Source: Candidatus Parcubacteria bacterium (GTDB lineage: Bacteria; Patescibacteriota; Minisyncoccia; UBA6257; JAGOQP01). From it: a stretch of 64,000 nucleotides of DNA. Both the position numbers and the translations under genes were made by a program. Below are positions 5,966-64,000 of this stretch, one piece after another. Where the stretch lies: positions 301,638-365,637 of the forward strand of contig AP024682.1 in NCBI GenBank assembly GCA_025999395.1, given 5' to 3'. Position 1 is the first letter of the stretch, and each line of letters begins with the position of its first letter. The notes beneath the pieces are model-generated. The model had not been told where the DNA came from. It saw only the letters and a list, made by a program, of their open reading frames with translations, and did not search any database.

Positions 5966-6039
5966 AACTTTTCTTTATTAATTTTACCAGCTTTAAAAAT
6001 AAAAACAAAGCAAGGTGTGGATAAACAAGAGAGAAGGAA

Positions 6040-6723: not shown

Positions 6724-6803
6724 ATTTATTTTATAAGCTTGCGATAAGCGATTATTGTCATTATACTCTGAAAAAGAAGAGAGAGGTAGTTTTTATTTAT
6801 CTT

Positions 6804-8681: not shown

Positions 8682-8734
8682 ATTAAGGGGTTATTTTCTT
8701 TTGGAGAAAAATTATTTGGAGTATAATAAAAACA

Positions 8735-9007
8735 ATGACTAGTTTTAAGAAATTGATTTTAGTGGTTTTTTTGGGGCTGATGGTAGCGGGATTAATGACG
8801 AGTGCTTTTTTATTAACCAAAAAAGTAAAAGAGTTCTCAAAAACTTACAAAGATCTTTCCGCTCAGATTAATAATTTAGCGGAAGAAAATTTGATTATTG
8901 AAAGGGATATAAAGTACTATCTTAACCCGCGCAATTTGGAAAAGAAGTTAAGAGAAAAGTTTAATTATAAGCATCCTTCAGAAAAAATGATTATTGTTGT
9001 GCCTTAA
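8735..9007 (+). CDS. ftsB: Septum formation initiator (FtsB/DivIC-like) protein
   Basis: 90 aa with a single N-terminal TM segment and then a coiled coil. The C-terminal NPRNLEKKLREKFNYKHPSEKMIIV resembles the FtsB DPxYIEExAR..PGE motif. Confidence 0.6.
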   Translation: MTSFKKLILVVFLGLMVAGLMTSAFLLTKKVKEFSKTYKDLSAQINNLAEENLIIERDIKYYLNPRNLEKKLREKFNYKHPSEKMIIVVP

Positions 9008-49616: not shown

Positions 49617-50183
49617 ATGAATATTTTGGGTTTTCTGAGTTCAAATTTTATCTGGATTATTTTGGTTTTGGTGGTTGGCTGGCTGATTTTAACTTATAAC
49701 TCTTTGGTGAGAACCAGAAATCGGGTAAGAGAGGGGTGGTCGGATATTGAGGTTCAGCTTAAAAGAAGACATGATTTGATCCCTAATCTGGTAAATACAG
49801 TTAAGGGCTATATGGCTCATGAAAGAACTGTTTTTGAAAATGTAACTCAAGCTCGAGCCAGAGCGTTAGGAGCGCAAAATAAACAAGAGAGAGCAGAAGC
49901 AGAAGGAGAGCTTTCTAATACTTTGAAAACTCTTTTTGCAGTTGCTGAAAACTATCCCGAACTTAAAGCCAACGCCAATTTCTTAGATCTTCAAAGAGAA
50001 ATTGCTGATACCGAAAACAAGATTCAAGCCGCTCGTCGTTTTTACAACAGTATGGTTTTGGAGCTTAACACTAAAATTCAAGTTTTTCCCACTAACTTAA
50101 TTGCTCGGCTTTTAGGATTTAAGGAAGAAGAATTCTTTAAAGCGGAAGAAGAGGAAAAAGAAAATGTAAAAGTTGAGTTTTAA
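49617..50183 (+). CDS. lemA: LemA family protein
   Basis: N-terminal TM segment and the LemA signature [33 protein letters not shown]. Confidence 0.85.
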
Positions 50184-50204
50184 TTTTTTAATTATCCTTT
50201 TACT

Positions 50205-50498
50205 ATGAATACTAGCCTTAACAATTTCTTGACTTTGTTAGAGCAAAATACTTTGCTGTTCTATCTTTTTTTGGCTTGGAGTCTTTTTTGGAAAGGAATT
50301 GCGTTATGGAAAGCCGCCCGCAATAATCATCGCTACTGGTTTTTGGCTTTGCTGATTTTGAATTTTGGAGGGGTTTTGGAGATTCTTTATGTTTTTGTTT
50401 TCAGTAAAGGAAAAAAGGAGGATCAGCAAAAAGTTAGTCAAGAGGTAGAGCACTCGGAAGAAAAATCAGAAGAGAAAGACGATTCTTCGTCTCAGTAA
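50205..50498 (+). CDS. Small hypothetical membrane protein with an acidic tail
   Basis: Two TM helices and an acidic C-terminal tail (EEKSEEKDDSSSQ). Confidence 0.4.
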   Translation: MNTSLNNFLTLLEQNTLLFYLFLAWSLFWKGIALWKAARNNHRYWFLALLILNFGGVLEILYVFVFSKGKKEDQQKVSQEVEHSEEKSEEKDDSSSQ

Positions 50499-50549
50499 GG
50501 AGAAAATTAAAAGAAAAGTTAAAATTAACTCGCCTTCGAATTAGTTCTT

Positions 50550-51446
50550 ATGACTAACAATCTTTATAGTTTTCGAGACGCTAACATTAGAAAGACTTGG
50601 CTGATTTTTTCTTTGTTTTTGTTAGTCATTATTGGATTGGGATGGTTTTTTTCTTATTTCTACAACGATCCTCAAATCCTTTACTTTGCGGTAGCTTTTA
50701 GTCTTTTTTTCAATCTTTTAGCTTACTGGAAATCTGATAAGGTAGCCTTAGCGATTGCGAAAGCAAAAGAAGCGGATAAAAATAATTTTTTAGAAATTTA
50801 CAGAATTGTTGAAAATCTTTCTATCACCGCTGGAATTCCAACCCCTAAAATTTATATTATCGAAGATCCTTCACCGAATGCTTTTGCTACCGGTAGAAAT
50901 CCTCAAAATGCTGCTATTGCTTTAACTACCGGATTAATTGAAAGATTAAACCGGAGCGAAATTGAAGGAGTGGTGGCTCATGAGCTTTCTCATATTAGAA
51001 ACTACGATATTTTACTTTCAACGGTTGTGGTAGTGTTGGTGGGTATTATTTCTTTACTGGCAGACTTTTTTATTAGGCTTACTTGGTTTAGGAAAAACGA
51101 TGATAGGGAAAGAAATCCTCTTCTTATGATGATAGGATTAATTTTTGCTATATTAGCTCCTTTAATTGGCACCCTTATTCAGTTGGCTATTTCTCGGAAG
51201 CGAGAATTTTTAGCAGATGCCTCGGGCGCTCTTTTAACTCGTTACCCGGAAGGATTAGCTAGCGCCTTGGAAAAAATTGCTTCTGCTCCTCCTTTGCGAA
51301 GAGCTTATAACGCGACTGCTCATCTTTTTATTGCCAATCCTTTTAAAGCAGATGCAGAAAAGAAAGAAAAAATTCCTTTGCTGGTAAGATTGTTTTCTAC
51401 TCATCCTCCTATTCAGGAAAGGATAAGAATACTAAGAGAAATGTAA
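50550..51446 (+). CDS. htpX: Zinc metalloprotease HtpX (M48 family)
   Basis: HELSHIRN (the HExxH motif), four TM helices, and a downstream Glu ligand region (REFLADASGA). Confidence 0.85.
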   Translation: MTNNLYSFRDANIRKTWLIFSLFLLVIIGLGWFFSYFYNDPQILYFAVAFSLFFNLLAYWKSDKVALAIAKAKEADKNNFLEIYRIVENLSITAGIPTPKIYIIEDPSPNAFATGRNPQNAAIALTTGLIERLNRSEIEGVVAHELSHIRNYDILLSTVVVVLVGIISLLADFFIRLTWFRKNDDRERNPLLMMIGLIFAILAPLIGTLIQLAISRKREFLADASGALLTRYPEGLASALEKIASAPPLRRAYNATAHLFIANPFKADAEKKEKIPLLVRLFSTHPPIQERIRILREM

Positions 51447-51470
51447 AAAAAAATTAAAGGTTTTTAAAAT

Positions 51471-51506
51471 AAAAAACCCATCGAAAAAAGATGGGTTTTT
51501 GTTTTT
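51471..51506. terminator. Bidirectional rho-independent terminator
   Basis: cccatc/gatggg hairpin with a flanking A-run and T-run. Lies between convergent htpX and 51528..51923. Confidence 0.65.
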
Positions 51507-51527
51507 GTGGGGAAACTTTATTTTCTA

Positions 51528-51923
51528 TTATATTTTGAGATTGTTTTCTACAAATTTTCCAATAATGGGCAAGGGCTTTTCCTCTCCTTTAAGAGCGTGA
51601 ATAACACCGATAATCCAAATGACGAAAAGGATTAATTGAAGAGGAAAGAAAAGTAGCCAACCAATGATAGGAACAAAAGTCCCAAAAACGCTAACCAAAA
51701 TAGCGGCGATTAGAAATCCTAACCCCTGTCTTACATGATATCTGACAAAAGGATCATTTTTGTCTTCGGTAAGGAGGGGGACAAAAAAGAGTAGGTAGGC
51801 CACTACTGCCATTAGCTTATTTTTTTCTTCTTTTTTCTGAGATTCTGGGGGTTGATTTTCTTTTTCGGTTGCTTCTGCCTTTAACTCTTCTTGGTGTTGG
51901 TGATTATGTTCTTTGTGATTCAT
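51528..51923 (-). CDS. DUF4870-like small membrane protein with a His/Glu-rich N-terminus
   Basis: N-terminal MNHKEHNHQHQEE, then three TM helices with YHVRQGLGF, typical of the DUF4870 family. Confidence 0.5.
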   Translation of the reverse strand: MNHKEHNHQHQEELKAEATEKENQPPESQKKEEKNKLMAVVAYLLFFVPLLTEDKNDPFVRYHVRQGLGFLIAAILVSVFGTFVPIIGWLLFFPLQLILFVIWIIGVIHALKGEEKPLPIIGKFVENNLKI

Positions 51924-51957
51924 ATTTTTAATTTTATCTTTTAATTTCGACTTTTAT

Positions 51958-51986
51958 TTGAATATTTTGACTTTATTGAGTATAAT
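51958..51986 (+). promoter_or_regulatory. Strong sigma70-like promoter upstream of the GIY-YIG gene and tRNA-Ser
   Basis: TTGAAT (51958-63), a 17-nt spacer, then TATAAT (51981-86). Confidence 0.5.
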
Positions 51987-52087
51987 CTTTTTGATTTTTT
52001 TTTACAATAGAGAGCGGCTGTTTTGGAGAGTTCTCATGGTGGTCTAGCCCCGAAGGGGACCCTTCGGGTTGCGCGTTATTGTGAAGA

Positions 52088-52361
52088 ATGAGGTATTTTC
52101 GTTTATTTTCTTAAAAGTGAAAGTACTGGAAGATTTTACATAGGATGTACGCGGGATATTGATAAAAGATTGAGATATCATAATAGTGGTAAAAATAAAT
52201 CAACCAAACCATACAGGCCTTGGAAGTTAATCTACTTTGAGAGTTATGATAGTATAAAAGATGCTTATAGGAGAGAGTGGTATTTAAAACATTCTAAGGG
52301 GTATTTAGAAAAAAAGGTTTATAATAAAAAAATATGGAGGAGGGTTCGCATAGTGGTCTAG
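52088..52361 (+). CDS. GIY-YIG nuclease family protein (YhbQ-like), interrupted by a +1 frameshift in a T-run
   Basis: ATG at 52088 reads MRYF, then shifts at tattttcg. The continuation reads VYFLKSESTGRFYIGCTRDIDKRLRYHNSGK...RPWKLIYFESY, the classic GIY...YIG...R...N pattern. The 3' end runs into the tRNA-Ser 5' end. Confidence 0.55.
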
Positions 52362-52428
52362 TGCGCGGCTCTGGAGAAGCCGTAGGTCCGAAAGGGCCTC
52401 GTGGGTTCGAATCCCACCCCCTCCGCCA
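52336..52428 (+). tRNA. tRNA-Ser (anticodon GGA), class II with a long variable arm
   Basis: Anticodon stem CGGCT/AGCCG with loop CTGGAGA. Variable arm TAGGTCCGAAAGGGCCTCG. T-arm GTGGG-TTCGAAT-CCCAC. 3' GCCA is encoded. There is one A-C mismatch in the acceptor stem as drawn, so the exact 5' end is uncertain. Confidence 0.7.
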
Positions 52429-52441
52429 GTTGGAAAAAGAA

Positions 52442-52540
52442 GGTTGCTGGCTCGCCCTCTGCGAGGGCTCGCCAGCCGATTTTAGGCGCAAAATTGAATT
52501 TTTTGTCTTTCAAAATAAAGTTCGAGCCGACATTTTTTAG
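52442..52540 (+). repeat. Island-flanking direct repeat, copy 1 (att-like)
   Basis: About 75% identical to 63051-63160 in the same orientation (shared ttgctggct, ctctgcgaggg, and aattttttgtcttt...ttcga.c.gacattttt). An inverted partial copy lies at 53887-53957. Confidence 0.6.
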
Positions 52541-53834
52541 AAATTCCCGGATTTGATAATTGTCGCCCTGCGACAATAGAATTTTGGCTTGTTTCTGCCT
52601 CAAAAATCATTTCTTTCATCGGTTCGAGCCAATTATTTCCCGATTGTTCAAAATCTCTGATTTTCTGCTCAATATCCAGTTTTTCGTTGAGCAGTTTTTG
52701 TTTCTTGGCTTGGTATTCTCCAAGTGTCAAAGCTCCTGCCGGCGATATAGAGGTCTAACAGTTTTTCAATTTTCTGCTCAACTCTCTGCCTTTTGCTCGC
52801 TGGAGATTTTGAACAATAATTTCGCTTTCTCTTTTCAGCTTGCTCTTTTTCTTTGTCTAACTCCAAAATCATATTTTCCGCCCACTCATCAGGCAAAGAA
52901 ACCTTTTTGAATAAAATCTCTTCATCTGCTCAACAAGGTTTTCTTCCCTTAAATACCTTTCATCGCATTTTTGCTTTTTCTTGGTGCACCGGTAGTAGTT
53001 ATGCCCTTTTTGCTTTTCAGCGGTTATCATACAGCCGCAATTTCCGCAACGCATAAAGCCGGAAAAAGCAAATTCATGCTTTCTTTTTCTCTTTTTCTTG
53101 CCTCGGTTATTCATTACTTGCTGGACAGAATCAAAAAGTTTCTTGGAAATAATTGGCTCGTGAGCTTCCCTGATAAACTTCTCCGTTAAACTTAAAAACT
53201 CCGTAGTAGAAATGATTTTTGAGCATTCGCTGGACACAGGAAACAGAGAGCGGTTTGTTGCGGTAGCTTGTTATTCCGCTGTCCGCCAAAAACTGCTTTA
53301 TGGCTTTTAGGGTATAGTCGCCGGTGGCGTAAAGCTCAAACGCTTTTCTGATAAACGGTGCTTTGCCTTTGTCCAAATCTATTTCTTTTGTCATGGTGAT
53401 TATTAAGATAGCCAAGCGGAGCAAAGCCTGGCCAAATTCCTTTTCGCAGTTTTTAGCGGTGTCCTCGCTTGATGTTTTCTGAAAGGTTGTCAACATAATA
53501 CTTGCTTTGCCCAAAAGCGATGGAGAGCATAAATTTTCCCTGCGGCGTGTTTTCAAACCTGAAAGTCGGAAATTTCAAATCTAAAATTTTTCCTGTGTCC
53601 AGCAGATAAATGATTTTCCCGCCGTCAACAGAATTTCTTGCTAACCTGTCCGGGTGCCAAGCCAAAATTCCGCTGGCTTCGCCGAGCGCAAATCCGGTCT
53701 AACATTTCTCCGAAAACTTTTCGGCCAGGTTCCTTGGCGGCAAATTCTTTTAGCTCAGCAAGCTGAGCTTCAATAGACAAAACCTGCTTTTCTTCTGAAT
53801 CTGTTGATTTTCTGCAATAGATAAAGTATTTCAT
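52482..53834 (-). pseudogene. Large serine recombinase, decayed copy (multiple frameshifts)
   Basis: Five overlapping minus-strand ORF fragments align in order to the intact recombinase at 55945..57537. Matching segments include MKYFIYCRKSTDSEEKQ, AWHPDRLARNSVDGG...FGQSKYY..NLSENIKRGHR, HEPII.KKLFD.VQ and MRCGNCGC...GHNYYRCTK. Confidence 0.8.
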
Positions 53835-53858
53835 AATCCCTCTTTGGTTAAAAATTTA

Positions 53859-54152
53859 GAAAAGCCCGCTTCTGGCGTCCCGCTTTGCGGAACAAAGACA
53901 AAAAATTCAATTTTGCGCCTAAAATCGGCTGGCGAGCCCTCGCAGAGGGCGAGCCAGCAACCTCTTTTTCTGACTGGCGATGTGTATTGGAAAAAATCCG
54001 AACTGATTTTATTAACGGGCTCGGCTGGCGGAAGGCAAAGACCGACCCCACTTTCCGCCCGCCTCGCCCTGAACCGGAAGCGAAAAGGCAAACCGCCAAA
54101 GAACCTGAAAAAATGTCGGCTCGAACTTTATTTTAGTCAGAAGCGGGCTTTT
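53859..54152. mobile_element. MITE-like non-coding element (~294 bp) with 16-bp terminal inverted repeats
   Basis: TIRs gaaaagcccgcttctg (53859-74) and cagaagcgggcttttc (54137-52). The interior shares blocks with the repeats at 52442-52540 (inverted) and 55900-56040. Confidence 0.5.
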
Positions 54153-54231
54153 CTTTACTGAATTGAAATTTTTTGATATCATATATTTGAAATCACCCTT
54201 TATGGTTTAATGATATCAAAGTTTTGAAACT

Positions 54232-54429
54232 ATGGCAACAATAGGCGAAAATATCAAAAAATACCGCAACAAACTTGGCTTAACGCAGGACGATTTGGTG
54301 AGAAAGTCTGGTGTAAAACACACTACCCTTACCAAAATAGAGGGCGATTTTGTTAAAAAACCGAGCGTTCAAATTATGGCCAAAATTGCCAAAGCATTAG
54401 GCGTTTCGGTTGAGGATTTATTGAAATAA
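54232..54429 (+). CDS. XRE-family helix-turn-helix transcriptional regulator
   Basis: 65 aa. IKKYRNKLGLTQDDLVRKSGVKHTTLTKIE is a Cro/CI-type HTH. Confidence 0.8.
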   Translation: MATIGENIKKYRNKLGLTQDDLVRKSGVKHTTLTKIEGDFVKKPSVQIMAKIAKALGVSVEDLLK

Positions 54430-54430
54430 T

Positions 54431-54793
54431 ATGGAACTGATTTTTCATGAAATTTTTAGAGCACTTGGCTACCTGTTAATCGCAGGTGTTGTGTTGTTTG
54501 CTTGGAAGACAGCACGCGACAACTCAAAAGACGGAAAACTTAAAGAAGTTTTATGGAAAGGACTTTTGTGGTGTGCTGGGATTGCTTTATTCGCGAGCTT
54601 CACTTTAGGAAATCCCTCTTGTATAGAACAATCTGATCCAGTATATGGCGGTTGCGAACAATATGCTGATGATGGTTTTGAGCCAACCACCGAACAAAGA
54701 GTCGCAAATTTTGCTTACTTCATGACGCTGTTATATATTCCTGTCGTTTTTGGTGCTTTCAGTGGTAATAAATTAACAACGAACAAAGAATAA
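54431..54793 (+). CDS. Hypothetical membrane protein (island cargo)
   Basis: 120 aa, three predicted TM helices and Cys residues. The start is 2 nt after the HTH gene stop. Confidence 0.35.
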   Translation: MELIFHEIFRALGYLLIAGVVLFAWKTARDNSKDGKLKEVLWKGLLWCAGIALFASFTLGNPSCIEQSDPVYGGCEQYADDGFEPTTEQRVANFAYFMTLLYIPVVFGAFSGNKLTTNKE

Positions 54794-54794
54794 T

Positions 54795-55505
54795 ATGGAA
54801 ATATTTCGTTTTATATTTTCAATTATTTTCGCCCCAATCAGATGGTTGGCAAATTTATTTACTCAACGAAAGGACAACATTTTAGAGTGGCATTTTAATT
54901 ATGGCCCCTCGTTTATAAAAATTGAAACAAAATACAAAGAGCAATTTTTACCCGATGACTTATTGATCGCTGGTTATATCCTATTTTTAGCCCGATATTT
55001 TTTCATCTGCGATGATAGACAAATAGAGGTTGTTAGAAAGTTTCTTTTAAACGAAATCGAAAAATCAAAATCTAATGAGATTACACTAAAGTTGTATGAG
55101 GCCGTTTTTCAAACCTTAAATCAAATGGAAAAAGATGCAACGCTTGGCTTATTCAAAATCTATAATAGATTTTTACCAATGCCACCCCTAACTTTTTCAG
55201 AAGATGAAGAACCGCGTCATTCGTTGGCAAAATATAGTTTCTTAGTTTTTGAGCGTTCCGGCGGCAATGGCTTTGGTCATATCTTCTATATGTCTGCCGG
55301 ACCCGATATTATTTTGCTTCCGCTTACGGTCGGAATTCTATACGAATATGTAGTGAACAAATTGCGAAACAAGGATAAAAAAGAAAAACTAGATAATTCA
55401 ATCATTGATTTATTAAAAGGCCATTCAGCAGTAGATTGTCGCTCTATAGCAGGTCAAACAGAATTGCCAAATGAGGTTATTATTAAAAATAATTTAAACT
55501 ACTAA
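54795..55505 (+). CDS. Hypothetical protein (island cargo)
   Basis: 236 aa with no recognisable motif. Sits in a tightly packed operon. Confidence 0.35.
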   Translation: MEIFRFIFSIIFAPIRWLANLFTQRKDNILEWHFNYGPSFIKIETKYKEQFLPDDLLIAGYILFLARYFFICDDRQIEVVRKFLLNEIEKSKSNEITLKLYEAVFQTLNQMEKDATLGLFKIYNRFLPMPPLTFSEDEEPRHSLAKYSFLVFERSGGNGFGHIFYMSAGPDIILLPLTVGILYEYVVNKLRNKDKKEKLDNSIIDLLKGHSAVDCRSIAGQTELPNEVIIKNNLNY

Positions 55506-55506
55506 T

Positions 55507-55854
55507 ATGGGAATTGTAATTTTTATTATCGGTTTAGTTTTCGGGCTTTTCGCATTTAGCCAAATTATTTATCCGCTTTTCTCGGCTTGGCCTAGAGCGA
55601 AAAAATTAGAGCGCGAAGGAAAATTGAAAAGACCAATTCCGATTTCTACATTTCTAATTGCACCAATTATTTGGGGCGTCCTTATGTGGGCTTCTGTTTT
55701 GGTCATCGGAAAATTTTGGCCTGAAAACTTAAACACTTATTACATAAGTTTGGTGATAATTTTGTTTGTGGTAATTATTCAGATTCCAAAGCAAAACCGA
55801 GATTTAGAAGCGGATTTCAAAGATTCTTGGAAACAGTATTTGAAAGAAGAATAA
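55507..55854 (+). CDS. Hypothetical membrane protein (island cargo)
   Basis: 115 aa with three TM helices. The start is 2 nt after the upstream stop. Confidence 0.35.
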   Translation: MGIVIFIIGLVFGLFAFSQIIYPLFSAWPRAKKLEREGKLKRPIPISTFLIAPIIWGVLMWASVLVIGKFWPENLNTYYISLVIILFVVIIQIPKQNRDLEADFKDSWKQYLKEE

Positions 55855-55944
55855 AAGAATTTGTCGCCAAAGAACAAAATCTGTAAGATTTTGTTAGTGG
55901 GCTACGCCCGCGAAAAACTTGAAATCGTCCTTTTCGCTTCCGCT

Positions 55945-57537
55945 TCAGGGCGAGGCGGGCGGAAGGGGGGTTCGGGGGGAATTCCGCCCGCCGAGCCAAT
56001 CGGTCGCGAAATCGGTTCGGATTTTTTCAAATGCACACCGCCAATATTCAATTTCAGAGTTTTTGAAGGTTCTTGCCTCGCCCTCGCTTCGCTCGGGCTC
56101 GGCAAAAGCAACGATTTTATACGGATTTTTGAAATCAAAAAACAATTTCTGCCCGCTCAAAAGAAAGTTCGAACCAATCTTTTTTAGAAAATCCCGGCTT
56201 TGCTCAGGATTTTCTTGCAAAGTGACAATTTCGGCTTGTTTTACGGAGTTTATGAATTTGGCGGCGAGTTCGAACCGATTATTGCCTTTTTGCTCAAAAG
56301 CCTTCAGTTTGTCTTTCAAAAGTTGTTTTTGATTGACGAGTTTGTTTTTGGCCTCTCTGTATTCATCCAAAGACAAAGCGTTTTCAAGATAAGCGTTCAT
56401 CAGCTTGTCTAACTTTTCGTCAATTGCTTTTATTTCGTTTTCTATCTTTTGAGCAAAAAAGCACGATGATTGGGCTTTTTGTTCTTTTTCTTTTTCAAGT
56501 TCTTTTATCATCCAATCAGCCCAATCATCGGGCAAAGAAACTTTTTGAATCTCCTTTTTGATTTGCTCGGCGATTATTTCTTCGCGAACATATCTTTGAG
56601 AACAAGGGATTTTCCTTTTGGTGCAACGCAAATAATTGTGTCCTTTCTGTGTCTCGGTGGTGATAAAGCAACCGCATTTTCCGCAACGGAACATTCCTCT
56701 GTAAATGTATGGCTTTAATTCTCTTGTCTTTGGTTTGCTTTTTTGTCTCATCACTTCCTGAACTTGGTCAAAAAGTTTCTTTGCGATAATCGGTTCGTGC
56801 TTTCCTTCGTAATATTCGCCGTTGTATCTCATCACTCCGTAGTAAAAAGGATTTTGAAGAAGGTATTGATAATTTGAAACAGAAAGTAATTTACCTTTTC
56901 TTCCTCTCAATCCCAGATTGTTGACAATCTTTCGGATCTCTTTAAGAGCGTATTTGCCGGTGGCGTAAAGCTTAAAGGCTTTTTTGATAAGAGGAGCTTT
57001 TTCTTTGTCTATATAGATTTGTTTTGTCTTGGGGTCGTTGAAGTAGCCAAGAGGCGCCATTTGAGGCCATAGACCTTGTTTTAGTTTTTGGCGATGTCCC
57101 CGCTTTATATTTTCCGAAAGATTGTCAATATAGTATTTTGACTGCCCAAAAGCGATAGACAACATAAACTTTCCTTGAGGCGTGTTTTCAAACCAAAAAG
57201 TCGGGAATTTTAGCTCTTTGATTACTCCGGTATCAACAAGGTAAATTATTTGTCCGCCGTCAACAGAATTACGAGCGAGACGGTCAGGATGCCAAGCCAA
57301 AATCCCTTCTGCTTCGCCCGCTTCAATTCTCTTTAGCATTTCTGCAAAAACAGGTCTTCCCGGCTTCTTGGCAGTTTGTTTTTCAACGAGAACATCAACG
57401 ATTTCCAGATTTTCTTTTTTCGCTAATTCTTTGAGTTCCGCTATTTGGTCCTGAATACTCCTTACTTGCCGATCTTCTGAATCGGTTGATTTTCGGGCGT
57501 AGATGAAAAATTTTCTTGTTTTGTTGTCTTTTTTCAT
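55945..57537 (-). CDS. Large serine recombinase (resolvase domain, recombinase domain, zinc ribbon and coiled coil)
   Basis: The probable start is MKKDNKTRKFFIYARKSTDSEDRQ, with the catalytic Ser in the YARKST motif. Has WHPDRLARN and the zinc ribbon CGKCGC...GHNYLRCTKRKIPC. The ORF track extends the N-terminus to 57609 and the C-terminus into the flanking repeat. The true C-terminus probably lies before about 56190. Confidence 0.8.
   Translation of the reverse strand: MKKDNKTRKFFIYARKSTDSEDRQVRSIQDQIAELKELAKKENLEIVDVLVEKQTAKKPGRPVFAEMLKRIEAGEAEGILAWHPDRLARNSVDGGQIIYLVDTGVIKELKFPTFWFENTPQGKFMLSIAFGQSKYYIDNLSENIKRGHRQKLKQGLWPQMAPLGYFNDPKTKQIYIDKEKAPLIKKAFKLYATGKYALKEIRKIVNNLGLRGRKGKLLSVSNYQYLLQNPFYYGVMRYNGEYYEGKHEPIIAKKLFDQVQEVMRQKSKPKTRELKPYIYRGMFRCGKCGCFITTETQKGHNYLRCTKRKIPCSQRYVREEIIAEQIKKEIQKVSLPDDWADWMIKELEKEKEQKAQSSCFFAQKIENEIKAIDEKLDKLMNAYLENALSLDEYREAKNKLVNQKQLLKDKLKAFEQKGNNRFELAAKFINSVKQAEIVTLQENPEQSRDFLKKIGSNFLLSGQKLFFDFKNPYKIVAFAEPERSEGEARTFKNSEIEYWRCAFEKIRTDFATDWLGGRNSPRTPLPPASP
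56032..56190. repeat. Imperfect terminal inverted repeat, left, of the recombinase element
   Basis: Matches the reverse complement of 57596-57808 over about 125 bp (caccgccaatattcaatttcagagtttttgaaggttcttgcctcgccctcgcttcgctcgggctcggca...). Both inner ends read accaatcttttttag. Confidence 0.6.
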
Positions 57538-57595
57538 AATCGCTTTTGGACAGTTAGTCCCGCTTCGCGGGACAAATTGCCGCTTTGCGTTCCGC

Positions 57596-57808
57596 CAAAG
57601 GCGGAACAAAAAAGATTGGTTAACCCCGCCCTTTTAACAGGAAGGGCGGGGTGTTCGCCTTCGGCGAACCGAACCTCCAAATTCTGGAGCAAAAATTGTT
57701 TTTTGATTTCAAAAATCCCTATAAAATCGTGGTTTCTGCCGAGCCCGAGCGAAGCGAGGGCGAGGCAAGAACCTTCAAAAACTCTGAAATTGAATATTGG
57801 CGGTGTCT
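57596..57808. repeat. Imperfect terminal inverted repeat, right, of the recombinase element
   Basis: See the partner at 56032-56190. It carries an extra insertion of about 50 bp with two GC-rich hairpins. Confidence 0.6.
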
Positions 57809-58090
57809 TTTGGACAAAATTCGAACCTATTTTGAACAAAATCCTGATGCCGACTTCTGATTGTCGCCCTGCGGGCGACAATCCCGCCCCGCGTTTCCGC
57901 ACGGCGTCCGCTTCGTTTCCGCCGAACAAAACAGAAAAATTTTCTAAACATTTATTTAATCGCGCCCCCGACAAAATTTTTTCTATTAAGGAAAAGAAAA
58001 TTTTTCTGTTTTGACATTCTACTAACGCAGAATTGCGGAAACGCTTCCCACCCCCAGTCCCGCTTCGCGGGACAGCAGGCGGGCTATGGT
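57799..58090. repeat. Perfect 292-bp inverted repeat, left copy, flanking the RM/HEPN cassette
   Basis: The reverse complement is identical to 62758-63049 as read by eye over the full length. It contains the hairpins gattgtcgccctgcgggcgacaatc and gtcccgcttcgcgggac. Confidence 0.85.
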
Positions 58091-58161
58091 ATTTTTTATA
58101 TTCGCCCTTGCCCCACCCGTACCGTGCGCGGGCGGTAGAGTAAAACTCCCTAAAAATAATC

Positions 58162-58195
58162 ATAACCTATTTTGGGATATTCTACAATAGGTTAT
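58162..58195 (+). promoter_or_regulatory. C-box-like operator upstream of the controller gene
   Basis: 10-bp inverted repeat ataacctatt / aataggttat with a 14-nt spacer. It ends 18 nt before the C gene ATG. Confidence 0.4.
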
Positions 58196-58212
58196 ACCAT
58201 AAAAATAAAGAT

Positions 58213-58434
58213 ATGCCAAAGTCAATTTATACAAAAGAGTATAAGAAGATCCTCGCACGGCTTAAAAAAGCCAGGCAGGATGCTGGCTTAAAACAGACAG
58301 AGGTCGCCAAAAAGTTAAATAGGCCTCAGTCTTATATTTCAAAAATAGAAAGAGGAGAAAGAAGAATTGATGTAGCAGAACTAAAAGAGTTAGCAAAGAT
58401 TTATAAAAAAGACATAAATTATTTTATTGAATAA
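58213..58434 (+). CDS. Controller (C) protein-like XRE HTH regulator of the RM system
   Basis: 73 aa with HTH LKQTEVAKKLNRPQSYISKIERGERR. Lies 17 nt upstream of the putative endonuclease gene, the classic C-R arrangement. Confidence 0.7.
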   Translation: MPKSIYTKEYKKILARLKKARQDAGLKQTEVAKKLNRPQSYISKIERGERRIDVAELKELAKIYKKDINYFIE

Positions 58435-58451
58435 AAATTAAATCACACAAT

Positions 58452-59426
58452 ATGGGTAAGTATGAAAGAGAACAAATCGAAGAGGCTGAGAAAATAATTG
58501 TTAAGATTATTAATTCTCAGAAGGTGTCCGATTTAGATAAACAAAATCGGTGGTTTAAACATGCGATCGCTATTGCTGAAAGAATTAAAAAGGATTTTCC
58601 CAATATTAAAAAAGCACAACATTTAGGTAATCGTTATGATAATACGGGAGATATATTATTAATTACCTCTGATAAAAGAGAAATTTTTATTGAAGTTAAA
58701 ATGAGCGACACAAGATTAGGTGTGGGGACTAAAGCAAATGTCAGTCAAGATGCGCTTACAGAAAATTATCTTTTTGTGGGCAAAGTTAAAAGTTGGAGTA
58801 AATTTCGCAAGGAGAAAAAACATAATGAGTGGGTTGATAGTTATTTAGACCTTTTTACTAGATATCCAAAAAAGATTTTAAATATCTCAAATTCCATAAT
58901 TAGAAGAGAGGAGAAAGCAAGGTATTTAAGAGGTTTAAAACAAAAAGGAAGTAGAAAAGCCAAAGAAATTCTCGATAAAATTCACGAGAGAGATAAAAAA
59001 GAAAAAATAGAATATTTGGTTTATCTTAGCAAACAACCGCAAAGAGAAGAAATGATTAAAAGATTTTTTATTTTAATTACATTAGGTATCCATAAAAAAG
59101 AAGAATTACAGGCTCTAATAAAAAAAGATAATTTTTTTCAAGAAATTCAAGATCTTTTGGTGTATTATGGGAATTCTTACAATGATAAAATTATTGTAAG
59201 GCAAGAAAACGCAGGTGAGAAAATTAAAAAAGTTCTCGAAGAGTTTTCAGGTTTTAAAATTATCTTTCCTTCCGGAACTACCCACTGTAAATTAGTAGGA
59301 ATAAAGGGAAAGAAAAATATACCTTTATTACAAATAGTTTTACATTGGAAAAATATTGCTCAAGGAATTAAAACTCCGTGCCTTAATATTTTTGATCTAA
59401 CTCCAAAATTTATTAATCCTTATTAA
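58452..59426 (+). CDS. Putative type II restriction endonuclease (PD-(D/E)xK)
   Basis: GDILLITSDKREIFIEVK gives a D...E-x-K catalytic core. It is convergent with the MTase gene, overlapping it by 4 bp. Confidence 0.5.
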   Translation: MGKYEREQIEEAEKIIVKIINSQKVSDLDKQNRWFKHAIAIAERIKKDFPNIKKAQHLGNRYDNTGDILLITSDKREIFIEVKMSDTRLGVGTKANVSQDALTENYLFVGKVKSWSKFRKEKKHNEWVDSYLDLFTRYPKKILNISNSIIRREEKARYLRGLKQKGSRKAKEILDKIHERDKKEKIEYLVYLSKQPQREEMIKRFFILITLGIHKKEELQALIKKDNFFQEIQDLLVYYGNSYNDKIIVRQENAGEKIKKVLEEFSGFKIIFPSGTTHCKLVGIKGKKNIPLLQIVLHWKNIAQGIKTPCLNIFDLTPKFINPY

Positions 59427-61066
59427 TTTGGGTCAATTGGGAATAATTTCTCTAGCTCAGTTTTAGAGATCTGCGTATTTCCTGTAATACTTCTTACCAC
59501 TTTCAATTTCTCTTCCGAGGAAAGCTGTTTAGCAATATCCTTAAGAGTTAAGTTTGTTTTTGGTAAATTTTTTCCGAAATCCATCTTAAGTTGTTCCTGT
59601 TTAGAGGGAGGAAAAATAACATTGACATGGTTTTCAGCAATAAACTTCATTCCCGAAGGGATAACAGCTGCTTTTAGTGTCGCTGTTTTCACTGAACCTG
59701 TGATTCTATTTACAACAATAGCAGGGCCAATATCAAAATCTTTTCTTTTTACATATTGAGGTTTTGTTTTATCTATAATTGGAAATTTTAGTCCTGTTGG
59801 AGTTATATTATGGGCCCATATTAAAGGGATTCCTTCTTCCGGGTTGTTTGTCAATAAATGCTTATTTTGGTTCCAGACTAATCTGCCAGTTTTTACCTCA
59901 TATCCGAGATCATATAGTGTTAATTTATTTTCGAAGGCTTTTTCTAGAAATTTTGGATTTTCGCTAAATATTAAAATTCCATTTTTTTTGAATAAATAGT
60001 TTCCCTTGTTTCTACCTTTTTTAAGGATAATTAGCATTGTTGATTGTAGCGCCCCGTGGAATATTTTAGGGTCATCTAGAATATGTAAATATTCAATATT
60101 GGAATTCTCTACAATAAATTTTCTTAGTTTTAAAAAGTATGCTCCGTTATTCATAGAAGGGGGAACAACATAAGCTAAATATCCTCCTTCTTTTAACCAT
60201 TTTAATCCCTGACAAATGAACAGGCTAAATATGTTTAATCTACCGTTTATAATACTCCCGAATTTTTTTCTTATATTTTCTGGAGGAGTAAATTCAAAAT
60301 AAGGCGGATTACCAATTACAAAGTCATATTTACCATAATCTTCGTTTAAAAGAGCATCTAGCTGTTTGAGTTTTGCTTCAGGAACTACTTCTTTAGCGAT
60401 CTTTACTAGTTTTTTGTCTATATCCCATCCATAAAGTTGAGGGTTTTTGAAATATTTTTTTGCTGTGATTAAAAATTCTCCTGTTCCACAAGCAGGATCT
60501 AGTATTTTTGGGTTTTTAATGTTGGTTGGTAATTTACTAAGGAGTGCTTCTCTTATTGATCTTGGGGTAAAATATTGCCCTAAAGATTTTCTATATTCTA
60601 TATCTGTTTCTTCCATATACCTAATTGTAGCCTCGGTGAATTCCTCTTTTTCTTTTATTTTTTCTTTTAACTCGCCAAAACTTCTAATTACACTTATTAC
60701 TTTTCCTTGAATTATTAATTCTTTTGTAAAAATCGGTTTTATTTTTGGATTTGCTGGTTGAAGCCGGAAACCATTTTTTTCTCTATAAATCTTTTTGAGT
60801 GTAACTTCATTATCATTTATTAGAGCCACTACCGTTTCTCCATTTTCAGCAATTGGTTGTTTCCTAATTATTACGATATCTCCATCGTAAATTCCTTCGT
60901 CAATCATGCTATCTCCTTGAACCCTTAAAGCGTAATGTTCGCCTGATTTAGATAATTGTGATTTGGGAACCTCAATCATTTCAGGATCTTCTATTGCTTC
61001 AATTGGTTGACCAGCAGCAATAGTGCCAAGTAGTGGAATTTCTACTGTCTCTTTCTTTTCTCCCAC
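59423..61066 (-). CDS. Fusion protein: LexA-like S24 autopeptidase domain plus N6-adenine DNA methyltransferase (gamma-class, TaqI/Eco57I-like)
   Basis: The N-terminal 130 aa read IPLLGTIAAGQP (the Ala-Gly cleavage site), GDSM (Ser nucleophile) and VTLKK (Lys). The C-terminal MTase has QYFTPRSI, ILDPACGTGEFL (motif I) and GNPPYF (motif IV). Confidence 0.8.
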   Translation of the reverse strand: MGEKKETVEIPLLGTIAAGQPIEAIEDPEMIEVPKSQLSKSGEHYALRVQGDSMIDEGIYDGDIVIIRKQPIAENGETVVALINDNEVTLKKIYREKNGFRLQPANPKIKPIFTKELIIQGKVISVIRSFGELKEKIKEKEEFTEATIRYMEETDIEYRKSLGQYFTPRSIREALLSKLPTNIKNPKILDPACGTGEFLITAKKYFKNPQLYGWDIDKKLVKIAKEVVPEAKLKQLDALLNEDYGKYDFVIGNPPYFEFTPPENIRKKFGSIINGRLNIFSLFICQGLKWLKEGGYLAYVVPPSMNNGAYFLKLRKFIVENSNIEYLHILDDPKIFHGALQSTMLIILKKGRNKGNYLFKKNGILIFSENPKFLEKAFENKLTLYDLGYEVKTGRLVWNQNKHLLTNNPEEGIPLIWAHNITPTGLKFPIIDKTKPQYVKRKDFDIGPAIVVNRITGSVKTATLKAAVIPSGMKFIAENHVNVIFPPSKQEQLKMDFGKNLPKTNLTLKDIAKQLSSEEKLKVVRSITGNTQISKTELEKLFPIDPN

Positions 61067-61070
61067 TATT

Positions 61071-61265
61071 TCAATAGACCTGGGTTCGTTTTTTTTCTCT
61101 TTTGATATATCCTTCTTTTTCGAGTCTTAAGAGATGATGATGAATAGTGGATACTGAAGAAAGTCGAAAATGTTTTTTAATTTCTTCTATAGAGGGAGCG
61201 TAACCTCTTTTTTCTTTGAAGGACTTTATAAAATCTAAGACTTGTTTTTGCCGTTTTGTAATCAT
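61071..61265 (-). CDS. LexA-type winged-helix DNA-binding domain, upstream segment of the same LexA-MTase gene, separated by an A8-run frameshift
   Basis: ITKRQKQVLDFIKSFKEKRGYAPSIEEIKKHFRLSSVSTIHHHLLRLEKEGYIKR is the canonical LexA N-domain. Removing one A from the A8 run at about 61085-61092 fuses it in frame with IEIVGEKKETVEIPLLG. Confidence 0.75.
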   Translation of the reverse strand: MITKRQKQVLDFIKSFKEKRGYAPSIEEIKKHFRLSSVSTIHHHLLRLEKEGYIKREKKRTQVY

Positions 61266-61269
61266 AGTA

Positions 61270-61330
61270 TTGACTTTCTATTTATTTTCGATTATACTTT
61301 AAATATAAACAAGACATCTAAAAAAGTCAA
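61270..61330. promoter_or_regulatory. Divergent promoters with a near-palindromic candidate operator
   Basis: Plus strand: TTGACT, 17 nt, TATACT, leading toward the 61357 gene. Minus strand: TTGACT (61330-25), 17 nt, TATATT, leading toward the LexA-MTase gene. A 15-bp near-palindrome TATAcTTTAAAtATA overlaps both -10 elements. Confidence 0.4.
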
Positions 61331-61356
61331 TCAGTCTAATTAATTTATACCCAACC

Positions 61357-61656
61357 ATGGCTACATCAAAACACGATGAAATTGCAAAAAAACTTGCCAA
61401 AAAATTCGGCACAGAATATAAATCTAATGAGGGCATAGATATTGTACTGCCTGATCGCGTTATAGAAGTTGAGACTAAAAAAGACGGAATACGCCAAGGT
61501 ATAAATCAAGTGATAAGATCGTCTAAAGCCAGATATATAGCTGTTAACAAAAAGAATGTACAAAATGCTCTTGACGCCACACAAGGCACCGGAATTGGAG
61601 TAATGAGTGAAACGGGCCATATTATAAAACGCGCCAGCAGAAGCAGGAAGAAGTAA
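61357..61656 (+). CDS. Small PD-(D/E)xK-like (YraN/UPF0102-like) putative endonuclease
   Basis: 99 aa. GIDIVLPDRVIEVETKK fits D-x(n)-E-V-E-x-K. Confidence 0.35.
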   Translation: MATSKHDEIAKKLAKKFGTEYKSNEGIDIVLPDRVIEVETKKDGIRQGINQVIRSSKARYIAVNKKNVQNALDATQGTGIGVMSETGHIIKRASRSRKK

Positions 61657-61681
61657 AAATAAAAGATTTCTAGAAAGTTAT

Positions 61682-62356
61682 ATGGAGGAGATACTTACAA
61701 AAATTAAACAACTAATAGAAGGATTTAGGGATAAATATACAATCAGATTAGAAGAAATTGTTGTTAATGCTGATAAGTTAAAGAAAGCCTGCAGAAGAAT
61801 TGAGCGCTCTTGGAGCGGTTCGTTTGCTGGTTGGCATGGCCGTATGTACTTTCGTGATTTTCAGATTCCATCAATACATGAAAGATTTAGTGGAGAATGG
61901 GGAGGAATACATGGCATACCTGAAGGATGGGAAGAAAAACAGCCTGAAGAAGTACGAGAAAAAATTGAAGAATTAGTTGGTGATGAATTTTCAGCTGATG
62001 ATTTTGAAAAAGAATTAGGGAAGTTAAAAAAAGAGGCAATCCAGCTTAAAGACGAAATAGTAATAACTCTTTCGGTCTTTAATTTTGACACCCACGCTGA
62101 AAAAGAAAAAGAATTATTTTCTCAAATAGAAAATTTTGAATTTGGCAAAACAAAGGGTGAATTTATAAACGATGGGTTGCCAAAAACAATGATGTCAAGA
62201 GATACGGAAGCCTTGCGGCAAGGAATTTGTATCGCTTCGTGGTTGTATTATGAAGGAGTAGCACTTGAAGCTAAGAGTTTTTATGAGGCGATAAATAATT
62301 TTTTCGGATTGGTTAATAAATTAGTAAGGCTACTTGAACAAAAAATCAAAACTTAA
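61682..62356 (+). CDS. Hypothetical protein, likely partner of the downstream HEPN protein
   Basis: 224 aa with no recognisable motif. It overlaps the next ORF by 23 nt, which suggests translational coupling. Confidence 0.35.
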   Translation: MEEILTKIKQLIEGFRDKYTIRLEEIVVNADKLKKACRRIERSWSGSFAGWHGRMYFRDFQIPSIHERFSGEWGGIHGIPEGWEEKQPEEVREKIEELVGDEFSADDFEKELGKLKKEAIQLKDEIVITLSVFNFDTHAEKEKELFSQIENFEFGKTKGEFINDGLPKTMMSRDTEALRQGICIASWLYYEGVALEAKSFYEAINNFFGLVNKLVRLLEQKIKT

Positions 62357-62753
62357 TACTAAAACAATCCATACCATAGATAATCAGTTAAATAATTTGC
62401 ACCAAGAAATATATAATAAATGTTTTGACTTGTATCAAAAGGGGGCATACGCGGAGGCAGTTGAAAAGAGTTTTAAGGTTGTACGAGATAGATTAAGAAA
62501 ATTGACAGGGTATGAGACAGGTTCAGAGGCATTTGGTAAGGGAAAATTACATATTAAGGGTGCTGCTGCTCAAAATGTTGACCAAGATTTTAATGACGCG
62601 GTTAAGTTCTTAACCATGGCAATTGATCGATTCCGCAATGAAAAAAGCCATACCTCAGATGCTAAAATAGATGACCCTGTCCGTGCTTATGAATATTTAA
62701 GACTAAGTAGTCTTGCGATGAATTTACTTGAAGATAGTGAGATTTTGTCGTAG
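62334..62753 (+). CDS. HEPN-like domain protein (TIGR02391-like), putative RNase toxin/abortive-infection component
   Basis: 139 aa. Has RNEKSH (the R-x4-H HEPN motif) near the C-terminus within a predicted helical bundle. Confidence 0.5.
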   Translation: MNKKSKLNTKTIHTIDNQLNNLHQEIYNKCFDLYQKGAYAEAVEKSFKVVRDRLRKLTGYETGSEAFGKGKLHIKGAAAQNVDQDFNDAVKFLTMAIDRFRNEKSHTSDAKIDDPVRAYEYLRLSSLAMNLLEDSEILS

Positions 62754-62757
62754 GCTT

Positions 62758-63049
62758 TACCATAGCCCGCCTGCTGTCCCGCGAAGCGGGACTGGGGGTG
62801 GGAAGCGTTTCCGCAATTCTGCGTTAGTAGAATGTCAAAACAGAAAAATTTTCTTTTCCTTAATAGAAAAAATTTTGTCGGGGGCGCGATTAAATAAATG
62901 TTTAGAAAATTTTTCTGTTTTGTTCGGCGGAAACGAAGCGGACGCCGTGCGGAAACGCGGGGCGGGATTGTCGCCCGCAGGGCGACAATCAGAAGTCGGC
63001 ATCAGGATTTTGTTCAAAATAGGTTCGAATTTTGTCCAAAAGACACCGC
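62758..63049. repeat. Perfect 292-bp inverted repeat, right copy
   Basis: Reverse complement of 57799-58090. Confidence 0.85.
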
Positions 63050-63050
63050 T

Positions 63051-63160
63051 AGTTGCTGGCTTACTCTCTGCGAGGGCGCAAAGAGCGCTCCAGCCAACTT
63101 TGAAGCAGAAATTTAATTTTTTGTCTTTTAAAGTGAAATTCGAACTGACATTTTTAAAAG
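63051..63160 (+). repeat. Island-flanking direct repeat, copy 3 (att-like, diverged)
   Basis: About 75% identical to 52442-52540. It is preceded by aggttcgaat, which resembles a tRNA T-loop remnant. Confidence 0.5.
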
Positions 63161-63216
63161 AGCAGAAATTTTTTAAGAGTAGTGGAAAAGTCAAATCATT
63201 AATTTTAAACAAGCTA

Positions 63217-63999: not shown

Positions 64000-64000
64000 G

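Follow-up and report, generated by a model that had tools for sequence, protein, structure and literature searches.

Elements moved by large serine recombinases, i.e. by Bxb1/phiC31-type integrases, by Ccr of SCCmec or by XisF at fdxN, are among the described systems closest to the locus reported here. It lies in a stretch of 64,000 nt from a Candidatus Parcubacteria bacterium (GenBank assembly GCA_025999395.1, contig AP024682.1, positions 301,638 to 365,637; the whole stretch is called the window in the following) and consists of a block of four genes, 54232-55854, within an array of about 10.7 kb, 52424-63155, at the 3' end of a tRNA-Ser(GGA) gene. Segments separated by alternating sites are known from the R64 shufflon (Rci) and from the inversion systems Hin, Gin, Cin and Pin, and two arcs joined by two long inverted repeats that hold the target site are known from the 2-micron plasmid of yeast (FLP/FRT). 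Transposon-like units with short target duplications, or tRNA integrations with direct repeats, were described in 2010 (PMC2853133), and small serine recombinases have served to mark defence loci (PMC13552941). The literature searched holds no description of an alternating-segment architecture in bacteria of the Candidate Phyla Radiation (CPR).

Our data strongly support that the four-gene block is the cargo segment of a decayed, tRNA-proximal unit in a modular mobile array at tRNA-Ser(GGA). It is the cargo of a recurrent serine recombinase array that targets tRNA ends, and its layout is found again in unrelated metagenomes at tRNA-Ser, tRNA-Leu and tRNA-Ala. Four segments and a remnant form the chain tRNA.o.(P1-R1(dead)-P1').o.(Q1-XRE,p120,p236,p115-Q1').o.(P2-R2-P2').o.(Q2-restriction-modification (RM)-like cargo-Q2').o.(P3 remnant), in which o is a short common core, R1 and R2 are recombinase genes and P and Q are repeat arms. 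Its features are given below with protein lengths in amino acids (aa).

52339-52428, plus strand: tRNA-Ser(GGA) (ARAGORN, Rfam); its last five bases, CGCCA (52424-52428), are the core common to all recombination-type sites
52424-52510, plus strand: arm P1, left inverted repeat of recombinase segment 1, 97% complementary to 53894-53979; antisense of the recombinase C-terminal coding tail
52429-53834, minus strand: R1, degraded large serine recombinase pseudogene (tblastn with R2)
53858-53874, no strand: 17-bp repeat, reverse complement of 54138-54154, with site 2 between the two copies
53894-54088, plus strand: site 2, made of P1' (53894-53979), core TGGCG (53975-53979) and Q1 (53975-54088) (repeat comparison)
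54154-54231, plus strand: promoter-like site and candidate dyad operator (sequence scan, cross-locus comparison)
54232-54429, plus strand: XRE-family helix-turn-helix (HTH) regulator, 65 aa (Pfam HTH_3)
54431-54793, plus strand: p120, optional cassette member, 120 aa (hydropathy, family alignment)
54795-55505, plus strand: p236, cassette core, 236 aa (AlphaFold2 model, family searches)
55507-55854, plus strand: p115, usual partner of p236, 115 aa (alignment, AlphaFold2, neighbour counts)
55929-56152, plus strand: site 3, made of Q1' (55929-56043), core CGCCA (56039-56043) and P2 (56044-56152) (repeat comparison)
55945-57537, minus strand: R2, intact large serine recombinase, 530 aa (Pfam)
57689-58091, plus strand: site 4, made of P2' (57689-57797), core TGGCG (57798-57802) and Q2 (57800-58091) (repeat comparison)
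58213-62753, no strand: genes of cargo segment 2, i.e. array segment 4 (Pfam, PADLOC)
62758-63155, plus strand: site 5, made of Q2' (62758-63049), core-like CGCTA (63047-63051) and a P-like remnant (63052-63155) (repeat comparison)

Each segment is enclosed by its own inverted repeat. Segment 1 (52429-53974) carries R1 between 52424-52510 and 53894-53979 (97% identity), segment 2 the four-gene block between Q1 and Q1' (53975-54088 / 55929-56043, 79%), segment 3 (56044-57797) R2 between 56009-56152 and 57689-57832 (92%) and segment 4 (57803-63046) the second cargo between Q2 and Q2' (57800-58091 / 62758-63049, 100% over 292 bp). Neighbouring repeats abut at the 5-bp core, which reads CGCCA at 52424 and 56039, CGCTA at 63047 and, as the complement, TGGCG at 53975 and 57798; hence the five sites alternate in orientation (+ - + - +). 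On the Q side of the core the arms correspond to the tRNA 3' end or to a mimic of the tRNA T-arm plus acceptor end, while on the P side they are recombinase-specific. P-like direct repeats are found at 52443-52537, 56065-56202 and 63052-63155, the last one being 74% identical to P1, in direct orientation, within site 5 at the right end of the array.

The sites overlap the coding end of the recombinase itself. In sense orientation, P'.o.Q encodes the C-terminal tail of the enzyme (..KLFFDFKNPYKIV..EYW/RCxxEKIRTxF..). The integrated recombinase reads into antisense tRNA and the spare inverted copy ends in ..WRCFLDEVRTFFEQNPNSEF plus stop. Site 2 carries on the plus strand an unattached copy of this tail (..WRCVLEKIRTDF..), the minus strand of site 3 encodes the tail now used by R2, and site 4 holds a spare copy (..WRCLLDKIRTYFEQNPDADF plus stop). 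As the first-pass annotation had stated, the block lies between two recombinase elements, both on the minus strand, of which the upstream one is broken. R1 shares 67% nucleotide identity with R2, and tblastn with the R2 protein splits it into five pieces in the frames -2, -3, -1, -2 and -3. R2 comprises 530 aa from the ATG at 57537, its open reading frame (ORF) extending to a TTG at 57609, and matches the Pfam families Resolvase (75.9 bits), Recombinase (63.7 bits) and Zn_ribbon_recom (33.4 bits); CcrB/XisF-like matches in NCBIfam stay below the cut-off. Rfam found the tRNA alone in 50000-64000, so that the GC-rich repeats are not a known RNA.

For comparison, 75 loci with p236 homologues were fetched from genomes and metagenomes (such fetched stretches are labelled L0xx). 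The layout is complete in the Parcubacteria locus L028, where tRNA-Ser(GGA) (4279-4366) is followed by a repeat (4361-4493), a recombinase on the minus strand and the second repeat copy (5979-6111, 97%), and then by a further repeat (6103-6274), XRE-p120-p236-p115-p201 and its second copy (8666-8837, 99%), with p201 being an additional membrane protein of 201 aa. The same order occurs in L048 after tRNA-Leu(TAA) with repeats of 100% and 99% identity. In both loci the reading frame of the integrated recombinase continues from arm P into antisense tRNA (..DSW/RREQDSNLRY), and the inverted spare copy between recombinase and cargo encodes the family's own tail (..DSW/RCFLDEVRTFFEQNPNSEF plus stop and ..LIVV/RLFDEIRTFFERN plus stop). 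Terminal repeats of recombinase segments reach a few bases into the tRNA 3' end in L068 (tRNA-Ala) and L034 (tRNA-Leu), and the repeats flanking the cargo are 97-100% identical in L030, L036 and L079. A long GC hairpin with a G-rich loop (GGGCGGGCAAAAA..GGGGGTTGGGGGG..TTTTTGCCCGCCC or complement) in the cargo-side arms is kept at 55950-55995 of the window, at 8700-8760 of L028 and at 8500-8560 of L048, although the rest of the arms differs between the elements.

The window, L028 and L055 have the synteny LemA-HtpX-tRNA-Ser(GGA) in common, with LemA and HtpX proteins being 53-58% identical. Towards L028 these flanking core proteins reach only 53-54%, whereas p120 and p236 are 88% and 87% identical, respectively; p236 of L055 is 72% identical. 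As the cargo is far better conserved than the flanking core genes, we conclude on horizontal spread. Moreover, L002, a Minisyncoccia metagenome-assembled genome (MAG) with 90% identity across the block, has the cassette directly after tRNA-Ser(CGA), and other loci combine the cassette with recombinases only ~27% identical to R2. The earlier claim that the operon is carried on a mobile island is borne out by these data, and its module and repeat layout are conserved in other islands (L028, L048). Neither a housekeeping function nor a conserved core position outside mobile contexts was found for this p236 clade. In L002, p115 shows an internal stop and a synonymous divergence (dS) of 0.91 compared to 0.07-0.18 in its neighbours, which indicates that cassettes are mosaics.

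Both orientations of the recombinase segment are seen when loci are compared. L033 contains window-type cargo (82% nucleotide identity) and, behind it, a segment of R2 type whose sequence runs collinear with the inverted stretch 56044-57797 (75% over 1828 bp), i.e. anti-collinear with the window as it stands. The second case is a relic in L002: its tRNA-proximal junction gives a single 139-bp alignment only with a window whose segment 1 is flipped, and corresponds to a deletion between the 17-bp repeats (53858-53874, 54138-54154), which are direct only in the flipped state. The contigs L038 (1-2105 / 4176-6280) and L064 (1-1875 / 4321-6195) were considered as evidence of inversion and rejected as probable assembler fold-backs brought about by the long inverted repeats. 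These two are near-perfect palindromes centred on the cargo, which calls for caution in automated annotation of such loci. In L053, the motif of the tRNA-Ser 3' end (CCTCTCCGCCA) occurs three times in direct orientation at 3458-4010, within 550 bp downstream of the tRNA and ahead of a truncated cassette; these copies look like stacked remnants of repeated insertions.

Compared with the known large serine recombinase elements, the array shares the combination of Resolvase, Recombinase and Zn-ribbon domains (with the CcrB/XisF resemblance below cut-off), insertion at a fixed site and the P-like direct repeats. It differs by repeats of 87-292 bp instead of ~50 bp, by a site overlapping the recombinase's own 3' coding end, by a recombinase segment found in both orientations and by an extra complete inverted site between recombinase and cargo. 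This internal site is present in both units of the window, in L028 and in L048, and the array therefore fails the simple pattern attL-element-attR. Like the shufflon and the Hin-type systems it has segments separated by alternating sites (at least three, here five), one segment that carries the recombinase gene as in hin, and sites in the 3' end of a coding sequence. In contrast to them, the enzyme is a large serine recombinase of 530 aa instead of a tyrosine recombinase or a small Fis-dependent invertase, the swapped gene end is that of the recombinase, the array sits at a tRNA 3' end with segments that look excisable, and no phase-variable target gene is evident in it. An excised unit would resemble the 2-micron plasmid by two arcs and two long inverted repeats holding the target site; FLP, however, is a tyrosine recombinase and that plasmid replicates autonomously, whereas the array has no recognisable replication function and its circle is hypothetical. 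The units described in PMC2853133 are matched by cargo segment 2 (a methyltransferase plus a putative nuclease), by its perfect inverted repeat of 292 bp and by the tRNA-linked recombinase island, but alternating recombinase and cargo segments are not part of that description.

The block consists of four plus strand ORFs, whose positions (54232-54429, 54431-54793, 54795-55505 and 55507-55854) had been given correctly before, and forms a single, tightly spaced operon. Exact database matches lead to KatS3mg098, a hot-spring MAG of a Candidatus Parcubacteria bacterium (locus tags _330 and _331), and Logan run DRR290133 contains a contig of 99.9% identity. A spacing of 1-2 nt between stop and start had been reported; it is one base between the stop and the following ATG at each of the three junctions. 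The junctions consist of the identical octamer TAATATGG at 54427, 54791 and 55503, which within 53800-55900 is found nowhere else, and their spacing suggests translational coupling. The ratio of nonsynonymous to synonymous substitution rates (dN/dS) is 0.19 for the XRE gene, 0.06 for p120, 0.055 for p236 and 0.13 for p115 towards L028 and 0.14-0.27 towards L002. With all values within 0.05-0.27, all four genes are under purifying selection. The four-gene operon is real.

The first-pass annotation had moreover considered the block to be more GC-rich than the host genes. This is weakly true: GC at third codon positions is 0.31-0.41 compared to 0.265 +/- 0.029 in host ORFs, and the noncoding repeats flanking the block are the GC-rich DNA proper (0.42-0.49). 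The bulk GC content of 0.354 matches that of 29 host ORFs (0.347 +/- 0.030), however, and the view of the whole block as compositionally foreign was rejected on this ground. Of a mostly membrane-bound set of products, p120 and p115 hold up by strong hydrophobic segments, whereas p236 does not (no Kyte-Doolittle window >= 1.6). That none of p120, p236 and p115 bears a recognisable motif agrees with our searches, which gave no match in Pfam, NCBIfam, PHROGs or PADLOC and, with family profiles against PDB sequences, nothing below E = 0.09.

Upstream of the block, just inside the left repeat Q1, a sigma-70-like site (TTTACT-17-TATCAT with upstream TG, 54154-54182) is overlapped at its -10-like hexamer by a dyad, GATATCAT (54175-54182) / ATGATATC (54210-54217). 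The dyad is kept in 16 distinct upstream regions of other loci, where it reads GGTAGTAT/ATACTACC or consists of related pairs. As the changes in these 16 regions are paired at the same two positions, both arms of the dyad change together. This pattern looks like an autoregulated XRE promoter with a candidate operator. The XRE protein itself matches Pfam HTH_3 (PF01381) with 52.6 bits (cut-off 23, E 4.5e-14) over residues 8-63, and in PADLOC-DB v2.0.0 only generic HTH, control-protein and capH matches were obtained. Several stable hairpins (z = -3.8) are found 3' of p115 but do not make up a canonical terminator. The hairpins of the repeats were tried as terminators and this was rejected: T-tracts are not consistent and the terminator scan did not pick them up.

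The four genes do not travel as a fixed set. We binned the relatives of p236 by identity (at least 70%, 50-70% and below 50%) and counted neighbours over the assessable loci, many contigs being short. At 70% identity or more, p236 is directly followed by p115 in 26 of 32 loci and has an XRE gene upstream in 23 of 30; 17 of 39 loci contain a recombinase or the tail of one, again with many short contigs, while p120 is present in only 2 of 39, i.e. in four loci if the window and L002 are included. Between 50 and 70% the numbers drop to 4/22 for p115, 2/20 for XRE, 1/26 for p120 and 2/26 for a recombinase, and below 50% there is no p115. Homologues under 70% mostly stand alone on chromosomes, with no XRE gene, p115 or recombinase beside them. 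L055 has intact p236 and p115 genes but a truncated XRE gene. XRE-p236-p115 is thus the recurring core of the cassette and p120 an occasional insert, so that of the proposed four-gene operon the common strand, the tight spacing, the promoter-like site and the dyad stand, but not the notion of a fixed four-gene system.

Clustering at 90% gives 94 relatives of p236, nearly all of them from Parcubacteria or other CPR bacteria, and an exhaustive profile search of 1.84 billion representatives yielded 121 proteins only. An AlphaFold2 model from a 46-sequence alignment reached a predicted local distance difference test score (pLDDT) of 90.3 and a predicted template modelling score (pTM) of 0.85. It shows an alpha/beta protein with, in order, an N-terminal helix, a beta-hairpin, four helices, a second hairpin and three helices; the N-terminal helix is only weakly hydrophobic. 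Foldseek gave no relative in PDB or BFVD (best hit with E 0.019 and a TM score of 0.21, not meaningful). Conserved motifs are LFLARYFYICDDRQ, MSAGPDIILLPLTVGILYEY and DCRS. A few homologues are fused to C-terminal TPR repeats, P0380 carries a C-terminal FtsK-gamma DNA-binding domain behind several membrane helices, another homologue has an N-terminal zinc ribbon (a weak match below the Pfam cut-off), and one N-terminus appears GYF-like in our own reading. None of these partners defines a function. TPR, FtsK-gamma and zinc ribbon are taken as cytoplasmic, which points to p236 being cytoplasmic and membrane-proximal, probably a globular protein at the cytoplasmic face of the membrane. The FtsK-gamma winged-helix domain was acquired separately at the C-termini of P0380 and of the p120 homologue P0187, whose families are unrelated. 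Homologues of p236 also occur at the end of a Deltaproteobacteria-labelled scaffold (L021, 62%) and of a Gammaproteobacteria-labelled contig (L024, 42%), reflecting either cross-phylum transfer or chimeric assembly or binning.

By hydropathy p120 has three predicted transmembrane segments. Its family comprises 130 clusters from several CPR phyla, and in the family alignment its loop contains the invariant Cys48 and Cys75 and the nearly invariant Cys64. FtsK-gamma at the C-terminus of P0187 fits a topology with the N-terminus outside and the C-terminus inside, by which the conserved acidic, Cys-containing loop would lie outside. Elsewhere p120 occurs in a prophage-like region with terminase (L012/L013), in another element with recombinase and primase (L014-16) and alone among housekeeping genes (L010). 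In L012/L013 (6352-9028) it belongs to a same-strand set of four genes for proteins of 274, 270, 116 and 226 aa, none of them with a Pfam match above cut-off, which adjoins a terminase large subunit and two N6_N4 methyltransferases, a prophage-like setting unlike that of the window. The 226-aa protein behind p120 was examined as a distant p236 relative and rejected (hhalign probability <1%).

The p115 family (111 clusters) is nearly always exactly 115 aa long. Alignment and hydropathy show a membrane protein whose loop is conserved and basic and whose C-terminal helix is acidic/basic; the AlphaFold2 model (pLDDT 86) has three long helices plus the conserved, charged C-terminal one and finds no PDB match by Foldseek. 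Homologues occur also in contigs binned outside the CPR. One of them (L092, 3487-3864, a Chloroflexi MAG) is located between TfoX_N/GIY-YIG and DprA-TopA-XerC and a further one adjoins an AAA_14/DUF4143 ATPase. In L097 an XRE-p115-p201 trio (6001-6885) stands beside TIR_2 and AAA_13 genes, with the p201 protein being 62% identical to the gene product following p115 in L028. As a distant relative of p236, the 200-aa protein after p115 in L097 was rejected likewise (hhalign probability <1%).

The second cargo of the array (segment 4) comprises an XRE HTH gene, a 324-aa protein, an S24-peptidase/N6-adenine methyltransferase fusion on the minus strand, two further proteins of 99 and 224 aa without assigned function and Hypoth_Ymh. 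The 324-aa protein has no match in Pfam, PADLOC, NCBIfam or PDB sequences and is possibly a nuclease; as a whole the cargo looks like a mobile restriction-modification cassette. The fusion is a 547-aa ORF (59423-61066, minus strand) with an N-terminal LexA-type S24 peptidase (residues 11-124) and an Eco57I/N6_Mtase-type adenine methyltransferase, an unusual arrangement for a modification enzyme. Immediately upstream of tRNA-Ser, a short GIY-YIG-like ORF is located at 52170-52361. Similar fragments occur in the p236 loci L031, L048, L052 and L053, in L048 and L053 (which were scanned for tRNAs) near a tRNA, and in L092 the p115 homologue has a GIY-YIG gene in front of it.

For anatomy, mobility, expression, products and function as a whole we regard the following as the best explanation, although we would not quite call it probable. 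The large serine recombinase would cut at the core o. Between like-oriented sites, recombination would lead to excision or insertion of a unit, while inverted sites, or insertion in either direction, would flip a segment; recombination at the common core may thus both move and flip segments. Transcription would start from the promoter just inside Q1, the XRE protein would repress the operon via the dyad overlapping the -10 box, and the three downstream genes would be translated by re-initiation at the TAATATGG junctions. The products presumably act at the membrane, p120 and p115 as small three-helix membrane proteins and p236 at the cytoplasmic face. They are not an obligate four-part machine.

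As to function, small elements generally carry exclusion functions, and superinfection exclusion by membrane proteins is known from prophages and plasmids, e.g. T4 Imm and lactococcal Sie2009. The block likewise encodes small membrane proteins on a mobile element behind a repressor-type regulator, but no similarity in sequence or structure to these proteins turned up, and viral collections are without the families (all three were scanned for in IMG/VR; p236 and p120 also in the INPHARED phages). Our guess, which we consider rather doubtful, is that the module acts at the envelope and hinders incoming DNA, i.e. superinfection or transformation exclusion to the benefit of element and carrier. 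It is based on the RM-like sister cargo behind an XRE gene, on the fusions to DNA-binding domains, on the TIR/AAA_13 and TfoX/DprA neighbourhoods and on the exclusion habit of small elements. The hints from the sister segment, from L097 and from the FtsK-gamma fusions are circumstantial. In full, the operon would be the payload of a modular CPR element with flippable recombinase segments of ~1.6 kb at tRNA 3' ends and swappable cassettes chained via a core of 5-6 bp, with p236 and p115 forming an envelope barrier; in this combined form the picture is possible but unlikely to hold in every part.

Several observations weigh against this explanation. The evidence for mobility is comparative (different tRNA targets, loci without recombinase), and the differences in orientation exist between loci and not within one sample. 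With R1 dead and Q1/Q1' decayed to 79%, the block's own unit has probably lost the ability to move by itself. Large serine integrases of the classical type are restricted to recombining attP with attB, and any action of R2 on the hybrid-looking sites is hypothetical. The earlier suggestion of a phage-exclusion, defence or toxin-immunity module was not confirmed: PADLOC-DB v2.0.0 contains no family for p120, p236 or p115 and no system model is satisfied, and homologues of known function as well as structural relatives were not found. Remote homology and structure prediction led to a confident model of p236 and to a model of p115, with no relatives in PDB (p236 also none in BFVD), and, by PDB profiles, to no function. 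The absence of the families from the viral collections searched points in the same direction, as do the solitary chromosomal p236 homologues and the lone homologues of p120 and p115 among housekeeping genes, which argue against a dedicated multi-protein system.

These lone homologues would also fit a loose set of accessory envelope genes, for example for surface, stress or episymbiont host-interaction functions, that share only a regulator and an element and have no role against foreign DNA. The genes differ from one another in family and distribution, p120 is a rare guest in the close p236 loci, and the deviant p115 of L002 speaks for mosaic assembly. The pairing of p236 with p115 (26/32) and the XRE-first layout (23/30) persist, however, across very different recombinases, and the neighbours in the sister segment and in L097 are defence-like. 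We consider such a set unlikely, though a serious competitor to the exclusion module.

A toxin-antitoxin or abortive-infection module, in which the XRE protein would be antitoxin or repressor and a small membrane protein the toxin that stabilises the element, is improbable. Sub-threshold NCBIfam matches of the XRE protein to HipB, MqsA and PezA-type antitoxins would agree with it, and small polytopic membrane proteins are common toxins, here in the setting of a mobile element. Yet no toxin family was found for the three downstream proteins in Pfam, PADLOC or NCBIfam. Homologues of p115, p120 and p236 exist without an XRE partner, which a toxin should not tolerate, and L055 keeps p236 and p115 intact next to a truncated XRE gene.

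Even less can be said for a lysis or DNA-release cassette with p115 and p120 as holin-like proteins and p236 as a secreted wall-degrading enzyme with an N-terminus of signal-anchor-release type, by which element DNA would be set free from part of the cells. The size of p115, its three membrane helices and charged C-terminal helix, the weakly hydrophobic N-terminal helix of p236 and the lack of own transfer genes on the element are compatible with such a role. On the other hand, p236 has no similarity to any muralytic fold (no relative in Pfam, PDB sequences or by Foldseek) and no conserved Cys-His pair in the alignment, its homologues are fused to domains taken as cytoplasmic, and the viral collections searched contain none of the families. 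We consider this reading very improbable.

Highly improbable is an ordinary, vertically inherited chromosomal operon with incidental recombinases and repeats: the LemA-HtpX-tRNA-Ser(GGA) locus does hold the p236 cassette in three diverged genomes and distant homologues are chromosomal singletons, but cargo proteins of 87-88% identity next to core proteins of 53-54%, further copies at tRNA-Ser(CGA) and next to tRNA-Leu, and own inverted repeats around the cassette in several independent loci contradict it. Large serine integrases have directionality factors that are unrelated to one another and vary widely in size, some of them measuring ~240-255 aa, and in the close clade the genes are always next to a recombinase segment, but p236 or the XRE protein as such an accessory factor of the recombinase instead of cargo can hardly be maintained, given that the second unit has an intact recombinase and no p236 in its own cargo, that the same p236 accompanies recombinases only 27% identical and that many p236 homologues have no recombinase nearby.

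Bacteria of the CPR have tiny genomes, from which very few mobile elements or defence systems have been described. The locus adds three unannotated protein families with purifying selection and horizontal spread, including p236 with a confident fold that has no relative in PDB or BFVD. It moreover reveals a recurrent and compact way of packaging cargo beside tRNA genes by means of long inverted repeats and a large serine recombinase. Should flipping and excision of the segments truly take place, this would be a simple natural system for the exchange of cassettes, and the recombinases would be new tRNA-end-specific serine recombinases with defined sites, useful as tools for genome engineering. 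As for exclusion at the envelope level, the cassette is a concrete candidate for the first such system in the CPR group.

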